A stretch of 64,000 nucleotides of DNA from positions 254,448,001 to 254,512,000 of the forward strand of contig CM097882.1 of assembly GCA_044892505.1 (NCBI GenBank), given 5' to 3'. The stretch comes from Schmidtea nova (taxonomy: Eukaryota). The number at the start of each line of letters is the position of its first letter. Positions within the stretch are counted from its first letter, which is position 1. Shown one piece after another: positions 4,912 through 63,571 of the stretch. The position numbers were made by a program, and so were the translations under genes. The notes beneath the pieces were generated by a model. That model was not told the DNA's origin. It saw only the letters and a list, made by a program, of their open reading frames with translations, and searched no databases.

Positions 4912-5183
4912 CAGGGGTTACCAAAGTGCGGCACTCAATCTGTTGAAAGGCGGCTCGCAAACCGCCAATGTAAGATCAAAGATCTTAATTTTTAAAAATA
5001 TTTTGTATTTTTATTAAAAAAAGAGTTCAGTTCAAGTGAATTCAGACATATTTATACTTATGGTTTCCTAGATTCATATAAAAACAAATTTCAAGCAATA
5101 GAAAATATAACTTCTCAGTAAACTTTACCGTTTTATTTAATAGATAATGTAATTATAATATACATGTATTATAATGTACATAC

Positions 5184-5247
<64 letters not shown>

Positions 5248-5330
5248 TTGATAAAGGCTGTGCCGAAATATTGTGTTATTGTTTATAAAAAAAAAAATTT
5301 TGATCTATAGTCATTATGAGAATTATTGAT

Positions 5331-5378
<48 letters not shown>

Positions 5379-5472: not shown

Positions 5473-6631
5473 CTTTAGAGGATGCTAGGCTAGTTTTTAA
5501 TGGCGATGTCAAAAGATTACGAAAATTATTTCGAGTGAAATTTCTTTCAAATGTACATCGGAAATATTTTTAATGTAAAATATATTTTAAAGCATTTCAT
5601 TGAAATTGAAATAAGTTTCCGAAGATCTTTTCATTTTTTTATAATGACTAAATCGTTTTTTAAAGTACGTGAATTTTCGGTACAGCCTTTTTCAAGAGTG
5701 TATCCAAAGATCTCACTATTAACCCCCCATAACCAGTGGAAACATGAAAATAACGTTTTAATGATTCTTTACATTTTCGTGGGCCACGCACGCTATTATC
5801 GCATCAATTGTAATTATTTTGTAAACAATAAAACATATGCTAATTTTTCCAATTATTTCATTTTTTGTACTTTTTGACCTTAATAAATACAAACAAAACG
5901 ATTCCGAGTTTTTACAAAGACAAATTATAAAATAACCCGCGGTCAGAGGGTTAACTGGCCAAGTTTCAGCAGTATTGTTTGATGGCACATAATGAATATG
6001 CTAATTAACATATGTAAACATCGCTTTCATTTTTCGTTTTTCAATTTTAAACCTGAATCACTGACGAATTTGGAAAATAAAAAAATTTAATTTTTTTAAA
6101 AACCAAAAAATAAGTAAAAAGTTGATGAATCTTATCTTGAAAAAAAAATGAAATTCAATATTTAGAAAAATGGAATTCATTCATTTCAAATTCACGTAAA
6201 CAAATTCCGAAAAAATTAAATAAAATATTCTAGAAAAAATGACTTTTTATACTATTTATTTTCTAATTTTTCATACAACAAAATCCAAAAACGATTTTGT
6301 TATTAATTTCTTATTTAATGATTTTTGAACTATTTTTTTGACTGTCGTAAATAACAGATTAAAGAAATTAAAATATTTTAATGATAATTAATAAATTCAA
6401 AATCTGTAACTAAAGTTAACATTAAAATATTTACAGTAATTAATTCTTGACTTTATAATTAGTCGATTAAAATTATTAAATATTTGCTCGAAGGAAAAAT
6501 ATTTTTAGTATCAAAAAAAAATTATTTTACAAAAATCGAAAAAAATATAAATTCCAACTTTTTCAATTACGCTCAAACAATCTTTGTGGTAGACGATGAA
6601 AGCATTCCCAATAAATATGGTGGTCCTTTAA

Positions 6632-13644: not shown

Positions 13645-14819
13645 TGGTTAATTTATAACAATAATTTATAATTTATAGCAATTTCATTAAAATAAACTTT
13701 AGATATAAATGTAAAATTTAGCGGATTTTGAGGATCGAGGAACAACGGCTCTGATGAATTATATACCCTTTAATGATGACGACCAGCTGCCACTCACTAA
13801 GCACGGTACCAAATTACTTACAATTTTTAATCAGTTCCTAGCTAAAAAACATTTAAACTTTGTATTGAATGTGGCTGGAAAACTGTTTTAAGTTCTTTTC
13901 TTTCAGTTTATTTTTGAAAAACGCGCATTTCTCAAATAGATTACTAAGTAATACTTTAAACAAACACATTATCTAATTATTCATACAACTGGAATAAGGA
14001 AATAGACCTTCCATGGCGTTAATTGGAAAATAAAAATAGTAATATTTATATTGTGGATCATAAGAACAAAAATATCATCAAAAAGTATAAATGGCTTACT
14101 TATTTTTCTAAATTATCAAAATTTTAAAATTATTCAATTAATGGCAATCAATCATAAATTTTTTTTAATTATAACATTGAAGGACATTGGAGTTAAGCAA
14201 ATGAATTCCGTATATATTTTAAGCCGATAATATGCTTAAACGTTAATCCGCATGTGATGAAAGGTAGATTTTATACCAAAACCTATAATTTGTTGTTCAA
14301 AAATGATCCGATTCTGCAAACTTAAAAGGCATTTTCCAAACCCCGTAAGATTGTTTTATATTTATAGTGGAAATTGATAACGTAGATTATTTCAAAAACA
14401 GTAAGGAAACATTAGTGGGAGAAAATGAAATACCTACAGGAATGGAATAATCAACCTCATTCATCATATTAAACAAACACGTAAAATAAATTATTATAAA
14501 CTAAAGAGATTGAATAATAAATGACAAAGTTGTCCCTTACAAAAAGTAAAAATAATTTATAAAAGAGATTTTAACTAACTTTAATATTAAAATTAGATTA
14601 TTAACGAAACACTAAAATTACTAAGAAGTTATTCTAGAAAATTTAGTTATATTTATTTAAAGAATTTTTATAAATTAAATTGTATATTATTTTTCTATTT
14701 TTTATGATTGAAGAAATTTTTTTACTACTGAACAATTTTTTTCATTATCAATTTCAACTATATTCTTTTTCAGATTAAATATCAACACGAGTTTTTAGCA
14801 CAGCTTTTTTCAAGTGTTA

Positions 14820-15122: not shown

Positions 15123-15130
15123 CATCATCA
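14820..15130. repeat. (TTCTTA)n and (ATT)n microsatellites around an assembly gap
   Basis: Directly visible; N run 14881-15045. Confidence 0.95.
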
Positions 15131-15421
15131 CAATTATCTTTTTGTTTCACCTTTGATTTTTTTTTAATATGAATATCAATAATTCCAATAATGGTAAGAC
15201 TATAGATCAAAATTTCTTTAAACAAGTACACAATATTTCGGCACAGCCTTTATCAAGAAATTTTGATCTATAGTCTTACCATTATGGGAATTATTGATAC
15301 TATTATCATTATTAAATTAATTAATAAATAAGTAACAAAATAAGCCTTTGCTGCAATAACAATTTTATTAAGTGAGAAAATTTTCGATTACAAAATAATC
15401 CTCTTCAATTATTATTATTAA

Positions 15422-15481
<60 letters not shown>

Positions 15482-15493
<12 letters not shown>

Positions 15494-15688
15494 CAATAAT
15501 TCTCATAATGACTATAGATCAAAATTTTTTTTTTATATAAACAATAACACAATATTTCGGCACAGCCTTTATCAAGTGTGTATTTAATACACACTTGATA
15601 AAGGCTGTGCCGAAATATTGTGTTATTGTTTATATAAAAAAAAAATTTTGATCTATAGTCATTATGAGAATTATTGATAATAATAATA
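15482..15688. repeat. ~200-bp near-perfect palindrome of two head-to-head copies of the hammerhead-bearing repeat
   Basis: Arms 15482-15584 and 15586-15688 are near-exact reverse complements around a single T at 15585. Each arm carries TTGATAAAGGCTGTGCCGAAATATTGTGT. Confidence 0.93.
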
Positions 15689-18163
15689 AAAAAAGATCAA
15701 AGGTGAAAAAAGATAATTATGATATTATTATTATTATTATAGATTTTTAAAATAATTTTAAAATTAAAAAAGTGGAAACTATTATGAATTGTTTGCTTGA
15801 GACTATTCGTTTCTATCAATGTTTACCGGTCAAGTGACTATTAAAAGAAAACGTAAAAACGTAAATTACCTTGATTATAAGCATCATTGATTTGATTTTC
15901 GGTTTTTGGCACGTTTTTAGGACAACCCTAAAATTTAATTTATAAATACCTTAAAAGTTCATTTTTGATGGCACGCTTACCTTTTGATAAATAACATTGT
16001 TCGAATCTCGATTGTTAGATAAGTGTTTATTGTTGTCGCCTGAAATCAAAATTACAAAAATTAAATCAATTAAATTATAATAAAAATATATAATTTAAAA
16101 TATTTTTATTTTTAACTGCATTACCGTTTTATTTTTTTGGAATTGTATGTCAATTCTGTCACTCGAATTTGAGAATTTTGTTTTCGTTTTTATATTATAA
16201 CAGCATTTATTATACATTTCTACGCATCAGCAGTGTATATCAATAACATAATTATATTGGATGAATTAACTCGTGGCGAACGGGAAATGGGTTAAAATGA
16301 CTAGATAGATATTTTTTATAAAGTTACATGAATTTTCGGAACAGACTTTTCAAAGTGTGTAGATATACCTCTTTGAAAACGACTGGCGAAAATTTTCGCA
16401 CCTTTATAAAAAAAATATTGATCTTTTTAAAATTATGAAAATTGATGAAATAGTAAATAAGGTAAAAATAAGAGATATAAATGATAAAAAATTTTGAAGA
16501 ATATTTAGAATTGAATTTTAAAAATAATGAACAAAAAATTAAGCTAAAAATTTTTTGAGAAAAATCCTTAAATTGAATTCAATTAATAAACTAATTCAGT
16601 TGGCCCGGAATGTATATTGGCCTGCTTGTTACTGTATCTATTCCATTTGAAGCACCGACAAAAATATGCACACACCTACACGGATTCATACACTGTATGT
16701 GTGTTGATGTTGTGTTATATTTTTTGATTGTTTATGTAAGTGGTTTGTTGTATCACATGACATTTGTCTGGAGAACTGATTTAGCATTTCTGATTTTCAC
16801 AGTATTTATCTAACATAATCAAGGTCAGCTAGTTCACAGCAGGAACAGTTAATTAATTCGCAATTTTGATGAGATATTTATCGTGGTATTCAATTTATCT
16901 GATAATATTATTTTGTTCTTTATTACCACATATTATTTTGATAAATTTGAACGAATCTATCATTATCCAATAATATCAATAATAATAAAAATACAATTAA
17001 ATAGGTCATTGAATGAAAATTAAAAATAATAATGAGTGAGTGGCATTTAATTTTTATCTTCATTTCATATACCTTCTAAACCCTTGTGCAGTAAACACGA
17101 GTCTGACTCGTGAATTCTTAAATTTGCTTTGTGAAACAATCACAAGTCTGGCTCGTATAATTTTTATTTATTCACCGTAGTATTTAATAAATAAAATTCT
17201 TTATTTTTTGCTGTTATGAAATTTCTTTTAAATAATAATTTCAGGCACTTAATTTATTTAAATAAGGCATTAACTAGACCCAAACGATGGATTTCGTTCA
17301 ACTTAGAAAAATATTTAACAAATTAATAATTATTCAAATAATGTGTCATTAACACATTGGCTACCGTGATGATCCTCAGTGACGGCCCCATGGGGCTAAC
17401 AGGGGTCTAATCTGAAGCCTGTGATCATGGAGAGCCCAACACGGTGGGTCATTTACTTAAGTATTATATATTATGTAGGACAGATAAAACGTATGAACAT
17501 AAGACAGAAAATGACTTACTACCAACAAAATAAAATTTAATAAGTACGATATCCTCATACAGATTTTTGTCTCGCCTTTGTGATTTATCAACATTCATAT
17601 TCTTATCTATGCTTAATGATAAATTAAAAGAAAATAACATCTTTTAATTTGAAGTTTAATTGAAAATGAGACACGTAATAAAATGCATTATTTATTTTAT
17701 TTTTTTAATAGTACTATGATGATTATGATGTAAAGAAAAATATTTTTTTTCTTTTTAACACAACTAATTATTATTTTTCTTTTCTGTCAAGTTAGCAAAG
17801 TAAATAAAAAGCCATATCAAGTGGTCATCCATTCTTAAACAAATTTTTCAGATCGGAAAATGAAGAGACCATAGCTGCTATAACAATTATTTGNNNNNNN
17901 NNNNNNNNNNNNNNNNNNNNNNNNNNNNNNNNNNNNNNNNNNNNNNNNNNNNNNNNNNNNNNNNNNNNNNNNNNNNNNNNNNNNNNNNNNNNNNNNNNNN
18001 NNNNNNNNNNNNNNNNNNNNNNNNNNNNNNNNNNNNNNNNNNNNNNNNNNNNNNNNNNNNNNNNNNNNNNNNNNNNNNNNNNNNNNNNNNNNNNNNNNNN
18101 NNNNNNNNNNNNNNNNNNNNNNNNNNNNNNNNNNNNNNNNNNNNNNNNNNNNNNNNNNNNNNN

Positions 18164-22316: not shown

Positions 22317-22846
22317 CAAAAAAGCTTGTGATTTTTTTTGTGATACCCAGTGCAAATCCCCAATAGCAGACTAGTTTCTATTGGGGATTTGCATTGGGTA
22401 TCACAAAAAAAATCACAAGCTTCTTTGTTTAAAACAAATAAGTCATCCGACAAATGTTTTTTTCAAAAGATATTTCAAGAAATTGAAATAATGAAGCTAA
22501 GGCAGTCGGGTGCGCTTGCAAACAGTTTCTGTTGAACACTTTTAGTGCGCAGAGGTGAAAATGAAATTCATACGCCATGTTTGCAAGTTACAGATTATCT
22601 GTAGGACCTTGCATATTCAAGTGATGTTTTATCCAGTGTACCAGGTATAGTATATACCAAAATCTTTCGACTTTGTTTTATACTTACCTGGCGCGGAGAG
22701 AAATTTTCGCGTCTCCTGCATAGCACTGATGAGAGCCAAAAGCTCGAAACTAGTCTGCTATTGGGGATTTGCACTGGGTATCACAAAAAAAATCACAAGC
22801 TTTTTTGTTTAAAACAAATAAGTCATCCGACAAATGTTTTTTTCAA

Positions 22847-22848
<2 letters not shown>
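22317..22848 (+). mobile_element. Penelope-like pseudo-LTR remnant within a (TA)n tract
   Basis: Inverted 5' fragment (22317-22378), ~90-bp direct repeats at 22378 and 22758 (380-bp period), an ORF-end remnant IFQEIEIMKLRQSGALANS, and a hammerhead motif. Confidence 0.8.
22720..22761 (+). ncRNA. Canonical minimal type I hammerhead ribozyme
   Basis: ATAGCA-CTGATGA-GAGC(CAAAA)GCTC-GAA-ACTAGT-C-TGCTAT: intact core, three stems, palindromic stem III; predicted GUC cleavage after 22755. Confidence 0.92.
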
Positions 22849-22877
<29 letters not shown>

Positions 22878-27218: not shown

Positions 27219-27653
27219 ATTTTAACCCATTGTTCTAGTGTTTCAATAAAGGAACATGACAGTTTCGATCCCATAATGCCTAATCTATACACCTGAATAT
27301 ATACCGGCAAACAACTAGGATCAATTAAGAGTTTTGTCACTATATTTTGATTGTCATAATTACGTTTTGAAAAATAAAATTTATCCAAACTTGTTTCTTG
27401 AAGTTTTCTTAACAAATACTACAGTAAATGGATTTGATTTTACTCTTAACAACTTATAAACATTTTTACATATAAATTTGCTGTCTTAAAATTTTTATCA
27501 GGGAAAAATATTCACTTGTCTTAAAAATTTTTGATCTATTATCTGGGAAAAATGAGTTCGAAAAAAGATCAAAAATGAAGAAGATTAAAGATTTTAATAT
27601 TTTAATAGATGAGATATTAAAATTGATTAAAAACCAATGGATTACACAATTAC

Positions 27654-30198
27654 CTAATCTTGACAATCCTTGTCCTCGGCAGTAAATATAAATGGCTATT
27701 CCTCCAACAACGATAACGATCAACATTATAGAAACGACTAGGAGTACCAAAATTATCGCATTGTTTGGCAATCCATTAGATTTGTTGGGAGTTCTAGGAT
27801 AATCTTTCGGGTTGATGTATTTAGAATTCATGCTGTTTTCATTGCTTCTATCATAAGAATCCTTTGGTTTTAAATAACGAATATACAAAGTTGTGGTTGT
27901 CGCCAATGAAGGCGTGCCTTGATCGCGAGCTTCAACGACCAGGCGATCTGGGTTTTTAACTTTGCTATCCAATTTTTTATTCAAAATAATCTGACCATCA
28001 CTTTGAATGGAAAACAATTCTTTAGTGTAATTCTGGTTTGCAAAGTTGTAGATAACTGATCCATTCAGTCCAAAGTCATCATCAGTTGCTTTAACTTCAC
28101 CGACAATTGCACCTGCCACCATATCATCTGTAATATTGAGAAAGTAATAACCATTAACTATTGGAAACGTAAATTTCGGCCTATTATCATTCACATCCAA
28201 CACTTCAATATGAATTGTGGTCGTTGCTGTACGAGATGGATAACCATTGTCAATGACTTCAACTAACATTTCGATTTTGTCGACTTTTTCACGATCTATA
28301 TTTCCAAAATATATGATTTTACCATCACTGTACACTTGAATCTCATTTAGAGTTGATCTCGATTTCACTTTAAACATAAATGTCCCATTCTGTCCAATGT
28401 CTCTATCAGAAGCGTTGAGGTTTCCAATATTGAAATGATTATGATCTTTGTCCCAGCTTTCAATGATTTTAAACGAATGCGTCGAGCTGATTTCTGGTGT
28501 GTTATCATTAACATCTAACACAATGATTCGGATTTTGCACGAGTCGTTAAGTGTCGGTTCTCCATTGTCTTTTGCTTCAACAGTGAATTCATATCGATCT
28601 TTCACCTCTCGATCGAGTATCTTGTTCAAATGAATTTGTCCATTGTGATTAATACCGAAAGTATCTTTCACTTCATAATCACCATTAATTGAATACGTTA
28701 TAATATTATTAGGACTCGAATCACTATCTCTCGCAGTGACACTTCCGATTTCATGTCCGATTTTGGCATCTTCTGATATTGAAAACGTTTTGAATTCATT
28801 TTCAAACCGTGGTGGATTATCGTTTTCATCCGAAATGAAAATAGTTATAATTTCACTTGAACTCATTGTCGGCGTACCATTATCGCTGCAGATTATTTCC
28901 ACAGAATACCGAGAGGTTTTCTCTCTATCAAAAAACGTTCCGGGAATGCTGTTTAAAAGGAAAATTTTTTTCTGACCACCATTCTCCATTGGAATTGAAT
29001 ATATTGAATCCAAACTAACATAATTCGTGTCATTCAATGAACAACTGAATTCACTATTAATCCCTTGATCCTCATCGATTACCGTGATCCTTGTCACCAA
29101 AATCTTTGATTTTTCATTTTCCTTTATCTTTAAACTTGAACTATGCACTTTTATTACGGGCTTATGATCATTGCAATCTCTAATATCCAACTCAATTGTC
29201 GTTTCATTGCTTCTGCCTTCCCCATCGGCAGCAATCACAACAATTGATGCTTTATTCTGTTTGAATGATTTCAAAGCTCCAATATTCAAATAAAGAATAC
29301 TATCCGTTATATAAAAGATCCTTATTATCATTTCATAATTCGGGGAATTCTCGCTAATTTTGAATCGAATTTGTCCTCCTACGGTTTGTGGATCGTCTTT
29401 GTCTTGGGCATTCAATTGGAGGATTTTTGCTTCTGTCGTACATTCGGAAATCTCTTTCCGATAAGGAAGTCCCACCCATTGGGGAGTGTTGTCATTAACA
29501 TCGGTTATTTCAACAGTTATTCGGCATTTGCCTTGATTTCCACTGCCATCACTGGCGTAGAGATGGAATTCAAAACTTTTAATATTCTCTCGATCTAGAT
29601 CACCGACTACTTTCAAATAAGGATTACGATTGCTTGGATTATTAATTAACTTAAAGTATTGTTCATATATCGAAGAACCGATAGACTTTAAATAGTAATT
29701 TTTAACTCCGAATTTTTCACTATCTCTGTCTTTCGCTACAGGCAAAGGGAACTCAGTTAATCTCGCGACGTTTTCCGGGATTTTAATTGTCTTTTCATCA
29801 GGTTGAAACGATGGAAAGTTATCATTGATATCGATGATTTCGATTTGCAGTTCGAAGATTTGGTTTTCAACAAAAATTAAATAATTCAAAAATGCACCTG
29901 CCGAACACTTATTAATTGGTTGGCAGATTTCTTCTCTGTCTATTGCTGACTGAACCCAAATGTCGCCTTTTTTCGAATCAATACTGATTAAATTTCGACC
30001 GAAAATGTTTGACTTTTCCGACTCTAATACAAATGATTTATTTTTCAGATTGTCTGTAGATTTTGTTTGATTTTGAATTAATTTAATCAAATTCCCAATC
30101 GGACTGTTTGGTTTTTGATTTTCTTCAACAGATAAATACAATTTCACAGAAAATACAGTTTTCATAACTGTATAAAATAAAAATAGCTGCCATAACAT
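27654..30198 (-). CDS. Protocadherin (7 cadherin repeats, delta-1-like): signal peptide, ectodomain and TM in one exon
   Basis: Signal peptide; repeated DRE, DxD and DxNDNxP motifs; TM ILVLLVVSIMLIVIVVGGIAIYIYC. Donor AG|GTAATT at 27654/27653, so the ORF-track tail to 27466 is probably intron read-through. Confidence 0.96.
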
Positions 30199-31654
30199 TC
30201 TACATATTAGAAGGGGAAAATATTTTAATCATTAAAATACTAATATTAATAAAATATTTACTTGAACATAATCCAAATTAGAATTTACAATTATACTTTC
30301 TTCAGATTGATGATTGATTTAGCAATTTTTTTTATTAAATCACGTTTTATATTTATATCAAATTTCATTGGTTTATTTTATTTAGCAGTTCGCCAATAGT
30401 TAAAAAGATGTTGAATATATGATTGAATGAAGTGCTGCACAAAACGACTGACTCATTTCGATACAATAAAGGAAATATACATGTAAATAATGCTAAACAT
30501 GAAGTTGCATGCGAGTCGAAATTCAGCATGCTTTTCTCCTTGTTATTCGACAAGTACATGAATTAATTTGATATTTGTATTTGATTTTCAGCGATGTGCT
30601 TGTATGTATGTATTTATTTGTTCACTAATTATATTTAATGAATACAAAGTACAATGGCGGAATTTGTAATCTTGACTGGTGAAATGAAATAAAGAAATAT
30701 AGTGCAATGTCAGACGAATTTTCATAAACAATAACACTAATGGTGGCATTTATTTACGATATATACTTGATCATGTCGTTAATTGAACACATTTGAAAAT
30801 AAACTGTTCAAATGTACTAAAGTTGCAATGAATACGTACATGTATATATTGCATAGCTTTAATGTGTCTAACAATGAAGTGAATTTATAAATATCATATC
30901 ATAAATTCGTTTCTATTTAAACATATTTAGCTATTTAATTATTAGATTAAAATTATTTATATTTAATAATAATAAATTATATAATTTAAATTTTTGTTGG
31001 ATGTATTGAAACTTTGTATACCACAGAGTATTTAAATTTGATTGTTGTTTTAAGTTTTTTGTCTTTATTTTAACTCATCTTAAAGTTTGTTATGGAAATA
31101 ATTTGATGATTTTTTATTTCCCACTATGAATAATTTCACATATGTTTCTGGTGATAATTTTAAATTGACTTTAAAAATAATATTTGATAAGTTGTAAAAT
31201 GAATTAAGAGCTGCAAAAGTGTTTGTTTATTTTTCGAAAACATTTTATTTTCAACTTTTCTTTTTATTAACTTTAATTATATTTTTCAAGGCCAGGCATA
31301 AAGAGATAATACGGGAATCCGTCCCGTACCCCAATTTATTGTTAGAAAAAAAACAATTTATATTTGCATACACATAATTCAACAGTTTGAAAAAATGATT
31401 TAGTGTTCTGAAAGGAATTAAAAATTTTTTATGATCAATAATGTCTTAGAGCAACTAAATGGATTGGTAATACTCAACATTAATTACCAAATTACTATTA
31501 TTTTAGATTATTCCGAAATAAAAACTGAATTTCCCAATTGGTTATTGTTTATTACTCATTAATGTAATTTTCATTTATTTGTTCAAATTTAATTAAGCTT
31601 CGCTCGAGTTCTATTAAAATTTAATTGATTACTGTAGTCCTTACGTCATATATA

Positions 31655-39820: not shown

Positions 39821-40409
39821 GCCCGTTTTAAAAATTTAGAGAGGTCTTTTGTTTATTTTTGCCAAACGTTTTCCAACAGTGCTTAAAAGTTGAAAAGTAC
39901 AGGATTAAAAGTGCGGGTGAAAATAGAATGCTAGGAAAATTGCAATGTATAATTTCTAGATCAACACCAAGACAGCTTGATTATTGTTCGTTGCAATTAC
40001 ATTGGACTCGTATTCTTCTTTAGTCACAATATTGTTTTTTTATAAATAACAAGATTTAATTCCAAAAATTATATTCATAAAATCATATTATTCAAACAAT
40101 ATTAATCGATAATATTATTTGAATATTTTTTTCTGAAGCATCGATAATTTTTCTGAGCTAAGATTCAACATTATGTAATTCAGCATACTTATTATATATT
40201 ATATTTTCAATTTTATTTAAAATTAATATATTTTACTCTTATTTTTTGAATTTAATAAAATTTTTAACCTTAATTTTTAATAATAATATCAATAATTACC
40301 ATAATGGTAAGACTATAGATCAAAATCTTTTTAAACAAGTACTAAATATTTCGGTACAGCTTTTATCAAGTGTGTATTTAAACCCATATTTATTAAATTT
40401 AATTTATCA

Positions 40410-43475: not shown

Positions 43476-46398
43476 CAGTGGCGTACCTAGAACCTTTTCA
43501 GCCCGGACGGTCTTAAATTTGCAGCCCTTTCTAAGTCAATCAAATGGTGGTTTGTATAAATTAATAAACATAAACAAACATTAGGTGGGGAACTTTTTTA
43601 TCATTGAATGCTACATTTAAATTAGGCAATAATAATGGAGACCGCATTAGTTGATATGCTTACAGATGCAACTTTTATAAAAAACAAAATACTTTTTTAA
43701 AGGCCACAAGAAACTTACAGAGGCCACTTATGAAACAAAAAATATACCTAATTTACAAAAAAATTGAATTAATTTTTTAAATTTTATATTTATAAATAAA
43801 TAAATTTCAATTTCTTTTGGATAAACAATCAAATTGTACATATATTTGTATGAAAACATATTTAGAAATTTACTCTTCTAATTTTCATAGTAGAAAAATC
43901 GTGTATAATGCTCTCAAAATTTATATTATTTGTAATTTCTTGTTCTATGGACAATATTGCAAGATTTTGTAGTCTTAAATCACTCATTGTTGAACGAAGA
44001 TACTTTTTAATCAACTTCAATTTTGAGAAGCTCCTTTTGCAACTAGCGACACTGATGGCAATTGTTAAAAAATTCTTAACAAAATTACTATGTTGGGTAC
44101 AGGATTTTCCAATCTATAATATTGAATAAACTTAAGTAGATCAAGAGGGCCTCCATCTTAATTTTCCGAAAATTTTACCTGTTCCTTCAGTTCTGGTACA
44201 GCCATAAAAACATGGATCTTTTTTCTTTCAATATAAAACTGTTCTTTATCAATATCAATAAAATCATTTATTTGGCATTCAAATTCTTCATTTAGTAGGT
44301 TGCATGGTATTATACACGAATATTTTCTTGCAAGAACATGCAACTGATCAAAGCGTTCTTTTATTTATTTTATAATTCTATCCATAGATAAAAACATTTC
44401 TCTTCGTACTTCTTGTTCTAAGGATAGCCCCACGTCTTGCGAATTTTCCCCACTCATATATTTTCCCTTCTAACTCGACGCTCAGTCGATATCTCCAACT
44501 CTTCATAAATCGCTTTGGCTGCTATAATAGCATTTTGTATTAGTGCATCTCTTTGTTCCATGAAACGAATTTGCAAAGAATTTAGTTTTATATGGCATTG
44601 ATGGACATTTAACCCTTTTATTTTCAAGTATTTTGGCGCGTCATTAATTTCCAAAAGAACGGGTTCCCATAAATAGAGATAACATAGAAAACAAAAAGAT
44701 TTCATTGAATTTAGTAATATTCCAGCATTTGATCTCGTCTTACCATTTTCTTCTTCAGATGTTAAATTTTCCAAAGCGCCTAAAATGTAAAAATAATGTT
44801 TTTTTACTATAGTTACTGCTTCTGCTCTAGCACTCCAGCGAGTTTCTACACTGCGTTTAACACCTTGAAGAGTGACAGAAAGTAAAATGACTCATCGATT
44901 TGTGGAAGAAGAAAGAAACGAAAATAACTATTCGAAAGTTCCAAAAAATGTTATGGAATCGATAGCAGTAGAAGCTGCGTGACAACATGCCAAGTTTAAA
45001 GAATGATTTGTATATGCCACAAATTCTGCATTTGGATTTATTTCTCTAATACGAGCTTGAACACCACAGTGTTTTTCTGCCATGACGGCAGCATTATTGT
45101 AAGCCTGTATTCTGTAATCTTTTATATATAAACCGTCATTTTCTAATTTTGTTAAAATCATATTTGTGATTTTCTCAGCAGTTTTCCCTTTAGTTTCTAC
45201 AAAGTCAATAAACAATTCTAAAACTTTAACTTCGCTGCCATCAATAACTACATATCTAATAATTTGACTAGTTTGATCTTTGTGAGAAATATCTGGGGTA
45301 CAGTCAAATATCATACAAAAGTATTTTACTTGCTTTATTTGATCCATAATTGATTTTCTCACCGCGCTTCCCAATAGCTCTATGAATTCGTTCTGAATCT
45401 TTGGCGACAAATAAGAAATACTATATTTATTACCCATCCTAAATTTTACTACATGTTCACGTAATACTGGATCGCACTTAGCCAACAAGTTAACAAGCTC
45501 TAGAAAATCTGCTCTATTTTTCATTGAACTGATATCTTCTTGATGAACACTTTCACGATGACCTCGAAACGCCAAATTTTGTTTTGCTAAGAATTTAATT
45601 ATATCAAGTATTCTTGTAAGAATTTCCTTCCAATTTTTGATTTCCTTATCAATATTCTGTTGTTGTAGATTATCCAAAGTTGCACCATGTCTAAATCTTA
45701 TTTCTAATTCTTTCCAGTAGAAAAATGATTGAATGTGCAGTGGACTCAACTCGTGTTGACTTATTTTGGGATTAAGTTTCCACCATTTGTTAAAATCATT
45801 TTCTAAGTTAAAACTTGATTGACAAAGATCGTCAAATAGTTAACAACAGAAAACAATAAATACTTTCCTTCGATGGTGAATACACCATCTATGACCTTAA
45901 CAACTTTTCACCATTAGGCAAAATTTGAAAAAACCAGTCGCGATTAATTTTTCTTGTTTCACTTTTGACTTTGATAGTATTACCATGACGTTTTACACCT
46001 TCACTGAAATTTGCATCTAAATTTTGAATTGCAAACGGACTTTGACGTACCACGAATACTCTTGTAATGTCGTCAATTTTGTTATGCCATAATCCAACAT
46101 CTTTCATAGAAATAGACGGAATAATTTGTGCAGCAGACTCTTCATCAGAACTTGATGAACTTTTTACTTCTTCTCCAGAATGTAAGGCAGGTCTTTCTGC
46201 TTCAACAACATTGGAAGAAGTTTTCTCTCTTTCGAGGACTGCTACTTCACCAGTACTTGAGGCAACAATATTAAAAGAACTAAAAGTTGATTCACGGCAG
46301 ATGTATTTGAGTAGTGCTCCAGTATTCTTATTCTGTATTTCCTAACTTGCCTTCTTTTTCTTTCTAAATGAAGCTCCGCTTTCTTTTATTCGTTTCAT
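43476..46398 (-). mobile_element. hAT transposon (ZMYM1/TTF-type transposase pseudogene, 43862-46398)
   Basis: End CAGTGGCGTA at 43476. Motifs MKRIKESGASFRKKKK, YCFCC, KQNLAFRGH, FDCTPDISHKDQ, NHSLNL, and C-terminal dimerisation motif SCKRSFSKLKLIKKYLRSTM. Stops and frameshifts; other TIR not found. Confidence 0.93.
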
Positions 46399-53772: not shown

Positions 53773-55058
53773 AATTTATTTTTTTTAGACAAATTTTTTT
53801 CAACAAATTTTTTAAGACAATTTTTATTTTAAGTCAAATTTTTTTTTCGACAAAATTTTTTTAACACAAATTTTTATTAGACAAAATTTTTTAACACAAA
53901 TTTTTTTAAGACAAATTTTTTTTTAACACAAATTTTTGAAGACAATATTTTTTTTTTAAGTCAAATTTTTTAAAACCAATTTTTTTTTACAAAAATTTTT
54001 TTATTTAGGACAAATTTTTTATAACACAAAATTAGAGTCATCAAAAATATTTGCAACAGGTGTGCAAACTAAACAAAGACATTGTTGTATGTGTGCATGT
54101 TGAATTAATTATTTGTCAAGTATGAAGCTTTTGCACATCAAAACCATCACAGAAGAGGTTCTGCTTCCAGGGTTCTGATCGCAATGTTCTGCTACTAATG
54201 TTTTTATTTATTCATTTAATTATTATTATTATCTTTCAAACTAAAAAAAGACTTTGCAACACGTGTGCAAGTTAACAAAGACATTGCAACACACGTGCAA
54301 GGACTTTGCAACACGCGTGCAACATGAACAAAGACATTGCAACATGCATGCAAACTAAACAAAGACATTGCAATACACATGCAACAATTTGAAATACATG
54401 TGCAACATAAACAAAGACATTAAAAAGCCAAAATTTATTTATAAATATGTCGTTGTGTACGTGTACAAAATTTAGTTTCAAAATTATTTACATCTGAATT
54501 ATTACTCGGAATATTATTCATAGGAATATTATTCATTGTAATATTATTCATCGGAATACTAGTATTTTTCGGAATATTATTCTTTGGAATATTTGACATC
54601 TTCTCCAACCGTATGGATGCCGATAACATCATTATAATTATTAATATAAATAAACTTATATAATGTAATACAATTTATGTTTTTTCGTTTTCAACTGTTT
54701 GATTTTGGTATCTGACTTCATATTCTTTTTTAACAAAGGTTTGATTGATACATTTTAATCGTTCAACTATTTTAATCATTATTTTGTTAATCATTTTTTC
54801 AATATCATTATTAATCACATTATTTTTGGAAGGACATTGATTACATTATAATTTAATTTGACTGCATTCAATGTTTAACTCGCGCAAGTACTATCTTGTT
54901 TTCGAAACGGATGGGATGATTGACAATCTTCCAAAGCTTGTTCTCCTTCAGTATTGTGAATACATAATAATAAAATAAGTATATTTAATTTCATCTTAAA
55001 AACAAAAACTAATATAAAAACTAAATTTGTTCATACTAAAATATTTATTAAAAAACAA

Positions 55059-55475
55059 TTATGCGTATCTTGCATTGTCAACTCTCCAAATCGGAGTAAC
55101 AACATCTTTTTTATCAATCTTGTATCCCTGGATAATAATGGTAACGAACCAGTGTTCTTGATCCACGAAATCAATAGTTTGAAAAGCATCATGAAACCGA
55201 GTTTTTCTGTTATTGATGTACATGGTTTCTTTACATGTCAAATTAACATTGATCTTAGAAAATAATCGATTTAATGCGATAATATCTGCTTTGGCAATAA
55301 TTATAGCAAGACTGTCATATAAAGATTTTGTTAACTTTACCGGAAATGATAATCGATACGGTATTTCATTAACCAAAAAATAAAGTCGACTGTCATAGTA
55401 CATCTGAACTGGTTTGACCTCAGTCTGATAGATTTTTTCGTCGCTTATATCTAAATTTTCTTTTCGTGATTGCAT
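55059..55475 (-). CDS. Polinton hypothetical protein (138 aa), possibly an OB-fold ssDNA-binding protein
   Basis: Intact ATG-initiated ORF inside the element; beta-rich C-terminal pattern. Function speculative. Confidence 0.6.
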   Translation of the reverse strand: MQSRKENLDISDEKIYQTEVKPVQMYYDSRLYFLVNEIPYRLSFPVKLTKSLYDSLAIIIAKADIIALNRLFSKINVNLTCKETMYINNRKTRFHDAFQTIDFVDQEHWFVTIIIQGYKIDKKDVVTPIWRVDNARYA

Positions 55476-55998
55476 GTTGTAAATTGTGACAATATTTTAT
55501 AAAAAGTCTTTGTATTTATACTGATGACTGGATGTCTTTGTCCAATCATATTCATGCATTTGTTTTGCACACACTATGCATATGTATTGCAATGTCTTTA
55601 TTGTATGTGTGCATGTTTAATTATTTAGTATTTGTCAAGTATGAAGCTTTTGCACATCAAAACCATCACAGATTAGGTTCTGCTTCCAGGGTTCTGATAA
55701 TAATGTTGTTATTTATTTAATAATTTATTTATTTATTTATTTCACAATTATTATTATTGTCTTTCATAAAAAACTTTCTTACTAATTATTTAATAAAAAC
55801 TAATTACTTTCTTATATACAATTAATAAAAAAACTACTACTAAAAATTGATTTAATAAAAAAAAAACTATTATTATTTAAATAAAAACTACAAATGAAAA
55901 AAAAAAACTTTTATTAGACTAAACTAAAATCACAAAAAACTAAAACTAAAACTAAAAAATAAGTTATTACATAAAACATATACACATCAAATTGTACA

Positions 55999-56611
55999 TT
56001 ATTGTTCATCGTTTTCTTTTTCTTTTTCTTCTTCTTCCTCCTCTTCTTCAACACCATCAGCCTGTCGATGGCATTCGGCACAATCGGGTGATTGTGGAGA
56101 TTCTGCACAATCAGGTGATTCCGATGGATACGGACCATCTAGAGATGGTGCATGTTCCATTGAGCAATCATTTTTTGATTGATCATCTTCATCAATCGGC
56201 TCCGGAGTAGAGTTGGGCCATGTTTCCTTGATTTGCTCCTCCTCCTCCTCATCGATTTTGTCCATTTGTTGGACATCATAGAGTTTGAGGGAATTCCTCA
56301 AAACCCATATGTTAAACTGCTGGATTCTTTCCACGCACAGAATGTGCTCAGGTACCACTGGCAAATCGGTATTCTGGCTGGTCATGTGGTCCAGCACAAT
56401 CTGATTGATATCTATTCCTGTCAGGACCATAATTTTATATGGGAACATCTCCGGAGCCGTGTAGACCAGAGCCGGCATAAGATTTGGGAATAGTTCCTCC
56501 AGCTTCCGATATATAACATTCATTAATTTTTCTAAATAAAAAAATATTAAATATGAAAAATTAAAAATTAAAACCCTTACGGCTTTTAATTAAAGTTTGG
56601 GTTAGCGACAT
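55999..56611 (-). CDS. Acidic orphan protein, copy 1 (exons 56611-56581, 56531-55999)
   Basis: ATG exon MSLTQTLIKS joins in frame via a 49-nt GTAAG...TTTAG intron (56580-56532) to the 174-aa ORF; Glu/Asp-rich C-terminus. Confidence 0.8.
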
Positions 56612-57244
56612 AATTGTGGATATAAACTATGTGAGATTGTTCATAGTATATATATCAAAGAAACACACATGATTTGAAACATACATAATGAACCAATCAG
56701 AGTGAAGCATGCACAACATGTCTTTATTCTATCGATACACACACACAGAGCCAATCAGAATCGTGCATTTCTAATGTCCAATCATATTCATGCATTTGTT
56801 TTGCACACACTATGCATATGTATTGCAATGTCTTTGTTGTATGTGTGCATGTTTAATTATTTAGTATTTGTCAAGTATGAAGCTTTTGCACATCAAAACC
56901 ATCACAGATTAGGTTCTGCTTCCAGGGTTCTGATAATAATGTTGTTATTTATTTAATAATTTATTTATTTATTTATTTATTTATTTCACAATTATTATTA
57001 TTGTCTTTCATAAAAAACTTTCTTACTAATTATTTAATAAAAACTAATTACTTTCTTATATACAATTAATAAAAAAAACTACTACTAAAACTTGATTTAA
57101 TAAAAAAAAAACTATTATTATTTAAATAAAAACTACAAATGAAAAAAAAAAAACTTTTATTAGACTAAACTAAAATCACAAAAAACTAAAACTAAAACTA
57201 AAAAATAAGTTATTACATAAAACATATACACATCAAATTGTACA

Positions 57245-57860
57245 TTATTGTTCATCGTTTTCTTTTTCTTTTTCTTCTTCTTCCTCCTCTTCTTCAACAC
57301 CATCAGCCTGTCGATGGCATTCGGCACAATCGGGTGATTGTGGAGATTCTGCACAATCAGGTGATTCCGATGGATACGGACCATCTAGAGATGGTGCATG
57401 TTCCATTGAGCAATCATTTTTTGATTGATCATCTTCATCAATCGGCTCCGGAGTAGAGTTGGGCCATGTTTCCTTTTTTTGCTCCTCCTCCTCCTCCTCA
57501 TCGATTTTGTCCATTTGTTGGACATCATAGAGTTTGAGGGAATTCCTCAAAACCCATATGTTAAACTGCCGGATTCTTTCCACGCACAGAATGTGCTCAG
57601 GTACCACTGGCAAATCGGTATTCTGGCTGGTCATGTGGTCCAGCACAATCTGATTGATATCTATTCCTGTCAGGACCATAATTTTATATGGGAACATCTC
57701 CGGAGCCGTGTAGACCAGAGCCGGCATAAGATTTGGGAATAGTTCCTCCAGCTTCCGATATATAACATTCATTAATTTTTCTAAATAAAAAAATATTAAA
57801 TATGAAAAATTAAAAATTAAAACCCTTACGGCTTTTAATTAAAGTTTGGGTTAGCGACAT
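57245..57860 (-). CDS. Acidic orphan protein, copy 2 (exons 57860-57830, 57780-57245)
   Basis: Same structure; intron 57829-57781. Confidence 0.8.
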
Positions 57861-58035
57861 AATTGTGGATATAAACTATGTGAGATTGTTCATAGTATAT
57901 ATATCAAAGAAACACACATGATTTGAAACATACATAATGAACCAATCAGAGTGAAGCATGCACAACATGTCTTTATTCTATCGATACACACACAGAGCCA
58001 ATCAGAATCGTGCATTTAGTGCATCGATATTGCAG

Positions 58036-58503
58036 TCATGAGTCACATGTTAGTATGAAATCAACAAAGGCTTTATCTTCTATAATTGATTTTATATCGT
58101 TAATAATATCATCAACTATAGTACTATAGTCTTTGTTTTTTAATCCTAATATGACTAATTTCCCACTTGCAAATATATTTACACACATGGGATTATATTT
58201 GGTATACCTCAAAGCTGGAAATAATTCTGGCTCGTAAACACACGGTATCAATTTCGATAATTCATTCAAATTACAAATAAATCCTAAATCAGCAGTTACA
58301 GTTATCGATTGTATTGTTAAATCGTAAAACTCAACTTGTTCGTCACTAATAAATTCCCTGCATCCCATTATTCTATATCTTCCTGTTTTAAAGTATATTA
58401 TTGGGTATTTCCCAGTTCGATCTACAATTTGCTGGGGTTTTCCTTTTGGAAATTTCATGTGTGATACATCAGTCTTACCCTTATAATTAATGTTTCTAAT
58501 CAT
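58036..58503 (-). CDS. TATA-binding-protein-like protein (155 aa)
   Basis: IQSITVTADLGFICNLNEL...YEPELFPALRY...VNIFASGKLVILGLK matches TBP repeat 2 (IQNMVGSCDV...YEPELFPGLIY...LIFVSGKVVLTGAK). A degenerate repeat 1 is visible (IRNINYK...IYFKTGRYRIMGCR). Confidence 0.9.
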   Translation of the reverse strand: MIRNINYKGKTDVSHMKFPKGKPQQIVDRTGKYPIIYFKTGRYRIMGCREFISDEQVEFYDLTIQSITVTADLGFICNLNELSKLIPCVYEPELFPALRYTKYNPMCVNIFASGKLVILGLKNKDYSTIVDDIINDIKSIIEDKAFVDFILTCDS

Positions 58504-58596
58504 TACTGAAAATATTTTTAAATGAAATAATTACTTTGAGAACAGGTATTTAAAACAAATATAAACAATAATATTAAGAAAATATAATTTTTAAAT

Positions 58597-59220
58597 ATGG
58601 AATTAAGAAATGATGCAGTGTTTCAAATTGTTGGTCCGAGCGGGAGTGGAAAAACTTTATTTGTTTGTAAATTATTGCAATCGAAATTATTCAAATCAAA
58701 ATTTAATAATATTTATTGGCATAGGGGTGCTGACGACGAAAGCGGAATGACACAAGATCAGTTTTGTAAAATAAAAATGACAATCATTAAAGGTTTCGAT
58801 AAAAACTGGTCATCTAGATTAAAACAAGGTGATGTGATTATCATTGACGACTTGTATCAAGAAGCAAATAAAGAAAAGGATTTCAATAACTTATTTACGA
58901 AAATCAGTAGACATAAAGGTGTTACAGTTATTTTTATAACTCAGAATTTATTTCATCAGGGCGGTAATCATCGAACTCGTAATTTAAATGTTCAATATCT
59001 TGTTGTGTTTAAAAATCCTAGAGATGCAACAGTTATTGATTTTCTGGCAAGACAAGCTTATCCTTCTAATCGTAACTTTTTGATTGAAGCCTTTCAAGAT
59101 GCTACAAAATCTCCTCATGGATATATTTTCCTGGATTTTACTCAACAATGCAGTGATGATTTACGAGTTAGAACTGATATTTTTAACCCGGAAGGAGCCA
59201 TGGTTTATAAACAAAGTTAA
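58597..59220 (+). CDS. A32-like (FtsK-HerA superfamily) packaging ATPase
   Basis: Walker A GPSGSGKT, Walker B IIIDD, and SRH...ITQNLFHQG...RTRNLN motif typical of Polinton ATPases. Confidence 0.96.
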   Translation: MELRNDAVFQIVGPSGSGKTLFVCKLLQSKLFKSKFNNIYWHRGADDESGMTQDQFCKIKMTIIKGFDKNWSSRLKQGDVIIIDDLYQEANKEKDFNNLFTKISRHKGVTVIFITQNLFHQGGNHRTRNLNVQYLVVFKNPRDATVIDFLARQAYPSNRNFLIEAFQDATKSPHGYIFLDFTQQCSDDLRVRTDIFNPEGAMVYKQS

Positions 59221-59240
59221 TTCTGTTTGCAATCGTAATC

Positions 59241-59765
59241 ATGTTAATGAAATCTCGAGTAAAGTTTGAGCCATTGATAAAGGCTAGAACAAAGAAAGCG
59301 GGAAAGAAAACAAAGAAACTATTTACAAAGAAATCTATAAATAAATCAAGAAAGAAATCAACATCCAAGAAAATACTTATGGATAATATTCCCAAAAATA
59401 ATCAAATTAATTTGAAATCTAATGCTAAACAAGCACATCATCGGAGTTTACCGTTTTTTAATGCATTACTTAAAGCCCCCTCCGTTAGAAGAATGGGTAT
59501 TCTTCAATCGTTTCCTAGTTACGTCATCGATGATTTACTCTCTATTTTAATTAAAGTCGTGCGAGGTAAAATGAATCTAACTCCATCTAATCGCCGTGTT
59601 TTGAACAAGCATAAAAAACCATTGTTGTCGCTAGTAAACACAAAAAATAAAAAACTTATGTGCAAAGTAATATATAAACAACAAGGTGGTTTTATCGCAG
59701 CATTGTTACCATTAGCATTATCTTTATTGGGAGGTGCTGGTTTATTGGGAAAAAGAAAGTCATAA
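59241..59765 (+). CDS. Basic core protein with a pX-like C-terminus (probable start ATG 59247)
   Basis: Lys-rich N-terminus; ends QQGG-FIAALLPLALSLLGG, resembling adenovirus pX xxGG|hydrophobic tail. Confidence 0.75.
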   Translation: MLMKSRVKFEPLIKARTKKAGKKTKKLFTKKSINKSRKKSTSKKILMDNIPKNNQINLKSNAKQAHHRSLPFFNALLKAPSVRRMGILQSFPSYVIDDLLSILIKVVRGKMNLTPSNRRVLNKHKKPLLSLVNTKNKKLMCKVIYKQQGGFIAALLPLALSLLGGAGLLGKRKS

Positions 59766-59768
59766 ACA

Positions 59769-59990
59769 ATGGGTCAATCACTACCTAATTTAAATTTAAA
59801 TTTTAAATCTTCTTGTTGTAATGGAGAAGATCTGGACGAACCCAAAAGACGACGCCGGTTTCGGTGGAGTCGAAAAGCTAAGGAAAAAAGCACAGAAGTC
59901 GAAACAACAGACACAAAGTTGGTTATCGGGGCAACTTGCATACAGTCTAAACAAACCGATGTTGAAACGGTTTCCAACTCGAGCATATAA
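59769..59990 (+). CDS. Small ORF overprinting the integrase N-terminus
   Basis: ATG 4 nt after the core-gene stop; MGQ...SSCC...KRRRRFRWSRK; overlaps the integrase ORF in another frame. Confidence 0.4.
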   Translation: MGQSLPNLNLNFKSSCCNGEDLDEPKRRRRFRWSRKAKEKSTEVETTDTKLVIGATCIQSKQTDVETVSNSSI

Positions 59991-60866
59991 AACATATAGA
60001 ATCAATGATTTGTGGCAAATGGATTTGATGGAAATGATTCCGTATTCCAAAATTAACAAGGGGTACAAGTATATTTTAACATGTATCGATGTTTACAGTA
60101 GATTTGCTCGAGCAATTGGAGTCAAATCTAAATCTGCTAATGACATGGCAATCGCTATCAAGACAATGATGAAAAAGGATCGGCCAACTAATTTACAAAC
60201 TGATTTGGGTAAAGTTAAATATAATTTTATATATTTATTATTTTTTTAGGAAAGGAATTTTACAACAGTAAAGTCAAGGAAGTTATCAAGGGAATAAATC
60301 ATTATTCAGTATTCTCACAATTCAAAGCCGCTCATGTCGAGAGATTTAATCGAACTTTGCGTGATCGATTGAAAAAATACTTTGTTTTTAAAGGCAATAA
60401 AACCTGGATTAATGTCTTACCTCAATTGATTCATAGTTATAATCATAGTGCTCATCGGGGTATAAATGGTAGGAAACCGGCAGAAGTAGTTGATACTGAA
60501 AATATTGTGAGTGAAGTGAAAGTAAAGAAACCAAAATATAAAGTTGATGATCATGTTCGAATTAGCAAGATTAGTACATCGCCATTCGTTAAAAATTTTG
60601 ATAATAATTGGAGTGATGAGGTATATCAAATATCGAAAGTCAACACAGTGCAGAATCCTGTCATGTATACTATTCGTGACTCTGATAACAATATAATCAG
60701 CGGCAAATTCTACGAACAAGAATTACAAGTTATTCCTCCACCTACGATATTTAGAATTCAAAATATTTTGAAGACTAAAATGGTAGGTAAGGATAAACAA
60801 TACTATGTCAAATGGCATGGATATAAAGAACCATCATGGATCTCGTCAAAAAATCTAGTAAAGTGA
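59821..60866 (+). CDS. Retroviral-like (rve) integrase with C-terminal chromodomain (exons 59821-60208, 60250-60866)
   Basis: GFGGVEKL, WQMDL (D), QTDLG|KEFYN (D, restored by a 41-nt GT-AG intron), VERFNRTL (E), YYVKWHGY...SWI. Confidence 0.95.
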
Positions 60867-61876
60867 ATTTTTACACTATTTTACCGAGAAATAGTTGTCC
60901 CAATATCCATCCAGATAATACCGCAAGTAAATTCATGGTGAATTTACCTAATCCAATTTATTTAAACGGAAATTGGGAAGTTGCTCTAATGGATTTTACA
61001 TTTGTTTACCAACCTTTTCCATATTATAGTTATTGTAAAATTTATTACTATAAAAAGAAAACAATTGTTGCAAATGCATTTTTCTCGATATATAATAATA
61101 GTGGTCATCTGAATGTTCCAACTCACGCAATTGATCCGGATATCGAAATGTGGCAACGAGGTGGAAGAATAATTCTCACGTGTAATGTTGTTCCGTATAC
61201 AATTACATTTAATGATCTTGATGTGGCAAAACGAATGGGAAGTAATAATCTGACAATAAAATGTACTGAAGAAGAATGTGAATTCAAAGTTATGCAAAAC
61301 TTGGCCAGTAGTGATGAAGAAATAATTACTTTTACTATATCGTATGATCGTCAAGAAGGACATGTATTCACATTCAAGGAGGAGTTGTATATAACGCAAC
61401 TAGATGAATTACAGAAATATATTAGCGATAATTGTTCGGATATTTTTACAGTTGTCGAATTAAATAAATTGTTCAAATTCAAACTCAAAGAAAAAATCAC
61501 TAAAGTCCGATTTGATAAATACTTGGTCAATACATTGGGATTAGATAAGGATACATTTACCGATAAAAATATCATTTCTGGTGTTCGTCAACCGAAAATA
61601 TCTAAACTTCATCAGCAATTATTCGTGTATACTAACATTATCGAACCCATTATTGTTGGTGATTCCTTGGTTCCTTTACTAAAATCGGTATGGATTGAAA
61701 AATACGAGCCAGATGAAATTGTTCAAATACAAGTCGAAAATCCAATGTATTTATCTGTTTCAACATCCTGTATAAACAATATAGAAATAAATATCCGGGA
61801 TGACAGCGGAAGATTTATAAAATTTCCAAAAGATTCAAAAACTCACTTAACTCTACATTTTCGAAAAAACGATTAG
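60836..61876 (+). CDS. Minor capsid protein (penton)
   Basis: FYTILPRNS...PDNTASKFMVNLPNPIYLNGNWEVAL at the N-terminus and LFVYTNIIEPIIVGD...PLL...NNIEINIRDDSG at the C-terminus are Polinton penton motifs. Start may be GTG 60862. Confidence 0.9.
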   Translation: MDLVKKSSKVNFYTILPRNSCPNIHPDNTASKFMVNLPNPIYLNGNWEVALMDFTFVYQPFPYYSYCKIYYYKKKTIVANAFFSIYNNSGHLNVPTHAIDPDIEMWQRGGRIILTCNVVPYTITFNDLDVAKRMGSNNLTIKCTEEECEFKVMQNLASSDEEIITFTISYDRQEGHVFTFKEELYITQLDELQKYISDNCSDIFTVVELNKLFKFKLKEKITKVRFDKYLVNTLGLDKDTFTDKNIISGVRQPKISKLHQQLFVYTNIIEPIIVGDSLVPLLKSVWIEKYEPDEIVQIQVENPMYLSVSTSCINNIEINIRDDSGRFIKFPKDSKTHLTLHFRKND

Positions 61877-61895
61877 TAATCCCGATATAGTTTCA

Positions 61896-63471: not shown

Positions 63472-63571
63472 GCAGAGCTCAAACATTGTTGGTTTAAGCT
63501 TAAACATTAGTATTTTGAGCAGAAATCAAACAGTATAAATGATCAAAGTTATTATTTTTATTATTCTTATT

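Follow-up and report, generated by a model that had tools for sequence, protein, structure and literature searches.

A U3-A8 minimal hammerhead in the pseudo-LTR of a young, abundant Penelope-like element of Schmidtea nova, and insertion junctions that may record its cutting

The 64,000-nucleotide stretch of Schmidtea nova DNA analysed here (assembly GCA_044892505.1, contig CM097882.1, positions 254,448,001 to 254,512,000 of the forward strand; hereafter the window) carries dispersed copies of a short motif that resembles a hammerhead ribozyme with a U3-A8 core, raising the question of whether the motif is a hammerhead, which element it belongs to and whether it cuts RNA in vivo. The motif comprises 33 nt (ACAC-TTGATAA-A-GGC-TGT-GCC-GAA-ATAT-T-GTGT), and exact copies are present in the window at 5244-5276(+), 15591-15623(+) and 15547-15579(-). 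All copies named in a sequence-only reading of the window were found (three exact, one truncated and three decayed), and the scissile bond that it predicted, after 5272, is correct. Positions are numbered from the first A of ACAC (+1, window 5244), with -1 for the preceding base, which places the predicted cut at the +29/+30 bond (5272/5273). The features are listed below; PLE stands for Penelope-like element, and L033 is an intact unit of the element described further on.

5154..5242, no strand: (TA)n target microsatellite, left flank of the solo arm (Tandem Repeats Finder)
5240..5337, + strand: short-tail arm from the PLE pseudo-LTR, standing alone and spanning about motif nt -4 to +92; it holds the hammerhead, the 5' UTR and the first ORF codons (ATG 5316-5318) (BLAST against L033; sequence)
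5244..5276, + strand: minimal hammerhead, with stem I ACAC/GTGT, core U3-U4-G5-A6-U7-A8-A9, extra A, stem II GGC/GCC, GAA, palindromic ATAT and U17; predicted cut between 5272 and 5273 (descriptor scan; monomer minimum-energy fold; 33,134 exact copies)
5335..5376, no strand: (TA)n target microsatellite, right flank of the solo arm (Tandem Repeats Finder)
5667..5699, - strand: decayed hammerhead of the oldest subfamily (TTGAAAA, AATT, C17) (descriptor scan; sequence)
14776..14817, - strand: further decayed copy of the oldest subfamily, absent from the list of the sequence-only reading (descriptor scan; sequence)
15127..15257, - strand: long-tail arm of an older subfamily, truncated (starts at motif nt +4), with the same hammerhead and a different tail (BLAST against L033; sequence comparison)
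15255..15305, + strand: short-tail partner of the 15127..15257 arm, start +47 (BLAST against L033; sequence)
15478..15585, - strand: short-tail arm (start -5) of a head-to-head two-arm insertion; hammerhead 15547-15579 (descriptor scan; BLAST against L033)
15586..15724, + strand: long-tail arm (-4 to +131), partner of the 15478..15585 arm; hammerhead 15591-15623 (descriptor scan; BLAST against L033)
about 16326..16358, - strand: decayed hammerhead of the oldest subfamily; its head-to-head partner, at about 16366-16420(+), is heavily decayed (descriptor scan; sequence)
40274..40379, - strand: decayed older-subfamily arm; its hammerhead (40341-40373) has 4 substitutions and a broken stem I (BLAST against L033; sequence)

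Further features were noted by eye in the same window. An ORF cluster at 55000-63500 resembles an element of Polinton/Maverick type (packaging-ATPase-like, integrase-like, capsid-like and TBP-like frames) and includes a block duplicated at about 55700-56600 and 56930-57840, a 920-aa open frame with cadherin-like repeats at 27466-30228(-) is probably a protocadherin exon, and broken hAT-like transposase fragments lie at 44454-46341(-).

The motif has the core Y3-U-G-A-N-R8-A / G-A-A / A15.1-U16.1-H17 closed by stems I and II, and the minimum-energy fold of the 33-mer is the hammerhead with both stems. It also has the traits of type I minimal hammerheads of PLEs, namely an extra A ahead of GGC (G10.1-C11.1) and a palindromic stem III (ATAT in the main subfamily, AATT in the oldest), and its initial description as a minimal hammerhead whose core carries U3-A8 and whose stem III is palindromic is supported. 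The exact 33-mer has 33,134 matches in the 1.25-Gb genome and the reversed-pattern control none, and a structure descriptor applied to 264 kb (the window together with 200 kb chosen independently of the motif) found 14 U3-A8 matches and none in five shuffles; the abundance is therefore not due to chance. Rfam does not detect the motif at E<=5, in line with the expectation that conventional searches would miss the family, and the practical point is that CUGANGA descriptors and Rfam overlook it. Rfam matches to mir-31 and mir-875 at 15535-15635 score below gathering and merely reflect the palindrome. A different motif, GGAT-ATGATAA...GAA-AT-T-ATCC (window 49222; also L017, L018 and L034), passes the descriptor with A3 and A8 unpaired and is probably a chance fit within another repeat.

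Between the oldest subfamily (291 pattern matches in the genome, obtained with a pattern that fixed the core, so that core conservation cannot be read from this set) and the main one, 4 of 33 nt are changed: position N7, both members of the compensated pair 15.2/16.2 (ATAT in the main subfamily, AATT in the oldest) and U17, which becomes C17. All of these are tolerant or compensated sites, agreeing with the earlier remark that variation falls at N7 and leaves stem III palindromic, and the tail of the oldest subfamily has strongly diverged.

The element that carries the motif was identified from its spacing. Among the first 100 matches listed, several lie 2,767 bp apart on the same strand, and in the intact unit L033 (2,767 bp) two identical motifs (L033:1000 and 3767) flank an 865-aa ORF, P0001. 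The hammerhead is situated 99 nt past the stop codon and 70 nt ahead of the ATG, with the predicted cut 41 nt before the ATG. P0001 matches the reverse transcriptase (RT) model RVT_1 (E=1.3e-7) and also has a cysteine linker and, at its C-terminus, an endonuclease of GIY-YIG type that carries CCHH (Y-x-x-x-C-x-x-C...YIGET..R...R..EH); the Pfam GIY-YIG model has no match on P0001 itself and is listed for close homologues. C780, C783 and H802 are nearly invariant in 22 aligned proteins and are followed by the two histidines of EHWEKVH. The linked Penelope RT/GIY-YIG ORF envisaged in the sequence-only reading is thus present, between two identical motifs.

The organisation is that of an EN+ PLE, with a single ORF joining the RT to a C-terminal GIY-YIG endonuclease with CCHH, pseudo-LTR partial tandems with an inverted 5'-truncated copy, a 30-40-bp tail at one end (here +92 to +131) and one hammerhead in each direct repeat around the ORF, as in L033. 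The youth of the family is indicated by 30 loci that keep an open ORF, whose identity to the unit is 97.7-99.8% (median 99.6%), and by the motifs next to intact ORFs, of which 56 out of 57 are the same. A protein search for further families in the genome returned only the main family among 54 scored candidates. Three head-to-tail units with 2,767-bp spacing are found at C154:12971-20871 and at C1:327994929-328002829, and fit read-through or circular templates. The motif is almost certainly the hammerhead of the pseudo-LTR of a young and very abundant PLE.

A close published relative is PNL2_SM, whose row follows those of Nematis in Fig. S2 of Craig et al. (2021; PMC8557442). By hand count, P0001 matches that row at 70 of 91 residues over linker and endonuclease, and both have CCHH and the reduced linker CLC-x5-CFC. 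PNL2_SM is a sister family with a different sequence, the comparison covering the endonuclease row only. The Nematis clade is marked by a CX2-5CxxC linker zinc finger with CCHH; P0001, a candidate member, has the reduced linker also seen in PNL2_SM, and homologues carry the fuller Cx3CxxC. Assignment to the Hydra clade, as first read from the DKT motif, the CxCX5C linker and the TA targets, was rejected: P0001 possesses CCHH, lacks RWK and has an endonuclease that fits PNL2_SM. The traits common to the element and that clade (a length under 3 kb, the DKT motif, a CxCX5C-like linker and (TA)n targets) are insufficient alone, and the RT motifs of P0001 differ from those of the printed Hydra proteins (PMC8557442).

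Selection on the hammerhead core was examined in 73 metagenome loci encoding related PLE proteins, which yielded 21 distinct hammerheads in a scan that left positions 3, 8 and 17 free; several rows come from one assembly series and are not independent events. The 3-8 pair is Watson-Crick in 21 of 21 (13 C-G, 7 U-A and 1 A-U), as compared with a permutation mean of 10.4 and no permutation out of 100,000 reaching 21, and H17 is never G though any base was allowed; five shuffles gave no matches. The relatives with the two closest proteins differ at this pair (U3-A8 in L168, 42% identity; C3-G8 in L169, 34%). The hammerhead core is under pairing selection across families, and the covariation that the sequence-only reading proposed to look for is present at 3-8. 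The A3-U8 core, at L198 (- strand, 7522), is a single instance.

Minimal hammerheads of metazoan PLEs (PMC4209133) resemble the present motif in being of type I, with a 4-bp stem I, an extra nucleotide between 9 and 10.1, G10.1-C11.1 and a palindromic 15.2-16.2, and in occurring both as pairs that flank an RT ORF at a spacing of about 3 kb and as close opposite-strand pairs. The U3-A8 core, which the sequence-only reading called non-canonical, was published for PLE hammerheads there in 2014: it occurs in the UUGAUAAA and UUGAAAAA rows of the Schistosoma mansoni Cercyon elements, and about 1,300 U3-A8 minimal hammerhead matches were reported for S. mansoni PLEs, with likely action as dimers and weak activity in vitro. 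The passage on core variants in PMC7151607 gives no rate for U3-A8. The present family differs from those of PMC4209133 in its stem II (3 bp and a 3-nt loop, as compared with 7-8 bp), in its 33,134 identical copies of one sequence as opposed to high heterogeneity, and in the mapping of 5' junctions to the cut, of which the available parts of that paper hold no counterpart; the sole Schmidtea row in its supplement file 2, as available, is another motif with C3-G8. The U3-A8 core and the PLE ribozyme are therefore known kinds, and interest rests mainly on the junction evidence. Hammerhead variants of PLEs are reportedly also treated by Lunse et al. (2017, RNA Biol), who may already list the present variant.

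A typical insertion consists of two head-to-head arms, one ending at +131 and the other at about +85 to +96, within (TA)n or (TAA)n. In inspected pairs (e.g. L009/L010) both flanks can be read, along one genomic strand, as a single (TA)n or (TAA)n array, and the repeats are therefore insertion targets. The initial notion of an abundant microsatellite-associated retroelement thus holds as regards the retroelement (an RT/GIY-YIG ORF and 33,134 copies) and needs amending as regards the microsatellites, which are targets and not parts of the element. Arrays of (TAA)n of about 1 to 2.9 kb adjoin the tail ends of the element at L009, L024 and L035, suggesting that target arrays may expand after insertion. 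The two-tail anatomy matches the tail of PLEs and the pair of internal sites at which RT starts in the Poseidon element PAc of Anolis carolinensis (Frangieh et al. 2024, PMC11167929), where the start sites are likewise a tail length apart, both target strands are cut and extended, targets are AT-rich and a hammerhead lies near the ORF start. The PAc hammerhead differs in having C3-G8 and a cut 26 nt inside the ORF, and no RNA reads end at that cut, whereas the present family has a class of DNA junctions at its own.

The 5' starts were compiled for 102 arms anchored on the tail and not on the hammerhead (the first 100 tail matches listed in 4.6 Mb of C1, and two neighbours). Thirty start at or before -50, none at -49 to -9, 54 at -8 to +11, none at +12 to +26 and 18 at +27 to +53; some apparent +36 starts are an artefact of a reference variant and truly lie at +33 to +35. 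The first wall, at -8, has a T/A start with a TATTTAG stretch 27 nt upstream and no common foreign leader at the junctions, suggesting that it corresponds to an RNA start. Genome-wide, 10,658 of the 33,134 exact copies extend to -12 and about two thirds do not. Contigs from four runs of one study, which may not be independent of the present genome, show loose ends at -7 to -4 and U17/C17 variation when compared with the pseudo-LTR, contigs being unable to show RNA ends. Of the head-to-head junctions, 1,300 sites have centres of 0-30 nt, 1,795 of 31-60 nt and 9,693 of 61-90 nt (controls 58, 52 and 58), the first bin including about 58 chance matches and a local satellite that accounts for most of its listed rows. 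This satellite (C1:3074737-3152478) consists of many copies of a 19-nt near-palindrome that fits the junction pattern. Templated insertions are visible at some junctions.

A second wall coincides with the predicted cut. A tighter junction pattern gave 1,083 arms genome-wide (control 0), of which 580 have centres of 5-14 nt and 503 have centres spread over 15-35 nt. The first 100 rows listed, from the first 123 Mb of C1, correspond to 66 distinct sites after removal of tandem duplicates and double listings; these were chosen for centres of <=35 nt and one arm reaching +31, so that arms with long partners are hidden. The longer arm stops at +31 in 19 sites, +30 in 21, +29 in 6, +28 in 4 and further upstream in 16, the +29 and +28 extensions being A/T letters that untemplated addition would mimic. 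One long-tail (+131) and one short-tail (+9x) arm are joined in 59 of the sites, and the other 7 have one unclassified arm. When the listed 31-60-nt sites are included (first 39.5 Mb), a hand tally gives about 11 arms per position at +30/+31 and about 2 at +12 to +29, an excess of about five-fold, with microhomology peaks of up to 8. In 26 short pairs from the tail-anchored listed sample (one of them a local duplicate), both arms start at -8 in 20, both at +30 in 6 and none are mixed (0 of 200,000 permutations). Mixed-class pairs make up about 5 of 50 listed 31-60-nt sites, two of them explained by stem I microhomology, and the window contains another at 15127-15305, with starts at +4 and +47. 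The wall was also sought in the oldest subfamily (4 sites, control 10) and in the C3-G8 family of window 22720 (9 sites in 12 lines, 2 of them stopping exactly at that family's own cut). A literature search of titles and abstracts, with subscription papers mostly outside its reach, returned no report of junctions at a PLE ribozyme cut.

These junctions lead us to lean, somewhat beyond an even chance, towards the +30/+31 class being a DNA record of hammerhead cutting in vivo. The fuller claim, that hundreds of insertions are fossils of U3-A8 cutting with both arms copied from cleaved sense-strand RNA, is held just a shade more likely true than false. That the hammerhead is an active ribozyme in vivo is probable, and it is likely that this U3-A8 hammerhead of a young PLE pseudo-LTR cuts the element's own RNA in a minority of transcripts, probably with the help of a second copy or of the element's protein.

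The most serious alternative, though an unlikely one, accepts the fold and the element and attributes the +30/+31 class to a second transcription start or to RT stalling, cleavage being irrelevant to insertion. T29-G30 would fit a pyrimidine-purine start dinucleotide, as does T-9/A-8, and +31 is as frequent as +30, both of which count against cleavage. The +30 class is a minority of short arms, 54 of the 72 listed running through an uncut motif; cleavage is dispensable for insertion of the anole PLE in vitro, where hammerhead mutants insert normally and no RNA-seq reads ended at the cut (PMC11167929), and Naiad PLEs spread without canonical hammerheads (PMC8557442). The wall nevertheless falls within 1 nt of a scissile bond predicted from the fold alone, the core is under pairing selection across families, and RT stalling would be expected near +34, before the 4-bp stem I, and not after its unwinding.

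An origin of the +30 class at the DNA level, through post-integration deletion of the palindrome centre or endonuclease cuts at ATT on both arms, is improbable. Symmetric loss would also yield matched arms, as in the 26 of 26 sampled short pairs, the anole PLE endonuclease prefers 5'-ATT-3' (PMC11167929) and ATT precedes G30, and microhomology peaks at +13, +16 and +19 indicate that DNA joins do shape the distribution. Against this, centre length is bimodal with no smooth decay, no wall appears at the numerous other ATT sites of the arms, and the best available microhomology, the perfect 6-bp AATATT palindrome at +24 to +29, is used in 2 of the 66 listed junctions, among which a single blunt +30/+30 join occurs.

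It is less probable still that the pseudo-LTR retains the hammerhead-like fold for protein binding or as a promoter element, with no catalytic role. The double hammerhead is predicted at -6.4 kcal/mol, as compared with 2 x -5.9 for the monomers (nearest-neighbour energies, 37 C), a weak dimer that would fit an idle element, and the published minimal hammerheads cleave poorly in vitro (PMC4209133); on the other hand, the 3-8 pair and a non-G H17, both catalytic requirements, are kept in 21 of 21 relatives, and the related anole motif cleaves with its protein present (PMC11167929). Unaided cleavage by a dimer is therefore not favoured on these energies, and the weak predicted dimer suggests that cutting probably needs protein, as with the anole motif.

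An independent family of non-coding retrozymes is very improbable as the source of the copies, since the stubs, about two thirds of which do stop short of -12, match the autonomous pseudo-LTR, first codons included, terminate at its two tail positions and are paired head to head, not arrayed as 170-400-nt tandem units. Non-LTR retrozymes (PMC7229834; bioRxiv 10.64898/2026.07.22.740005) share the type I hammerhead and the link to PLEs, and differ in being non-coding head-to-tail units of about 170-400 nt, whereas the present unit is 2,767 bp and coding, and its short copies are truncated, head-to-head ends.

Two other hammerhead families were observed. One belongs to a separate element at window 22317-22850, whose hammerhead (22720-22761) is canonical, with C3-G8 and the palindrome ACTAGT as stem III (Rfam HH9 at 24.1 bits, below gathering). 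This element repeats at 380 nt (22379 and 22759), is flanked by (TA)n and has an inverted arm near 22317-22376; another copy occurs in L058, and it is likely a retrozyme moved by PLE machinery. Just upstream of its hammerhead, ATACTTACCTGGC (window 22680-22692) resembles the 5' end of U1 snRNA and may be an snRNA-type promoter or a captured U1 end, and Rfam gave no U1 match for this region. A third family of the genome, at L008:2245(-), has C3-G8, a long stem II and a palindromic ATATAT.

Under the preferred reading, in which the hammerhead cuts part of the element's own RNA, the element protein would cut both target strands, each end would prime reverse transcription at an internal site (+131 or +92), and each cDNA would run to the 5' end of the RNA before the two are end-joined. 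Uncut transcripts starting near -8 would account for the common stubs, in which the hammerhead is intact; RNA cleaved beforehand after U17 would account for the rarer ones, which start at +30/+31; and read-through RNA would give long and tandem copies. The cut would remove a 37-nt 5' piece, cap included, from the mRNA, and one might speculate that decapping acts as a dose-dependent brake on the element; circle formation would also be possible.

The function of PLE hammerheads is described as 'still unclear' in PMC8557442. If the +30 wall is the cut, it would indicate in vivo activity of a very small, non-canonical hammerhead, would favour a sense-strand template over antisense self-priming (PMC3846280) for head-to-head PLE junctions, and would provide a genome-only assay applicable to any PLE family, for which the 33,134 identical copies of this one afford large statistics. 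If true, the frequency with which the ribozyme fires could be read from the genome, at roughly one short insertion in ten, and the ribozyme would decap the element's own mRNA 37 nt from its start.
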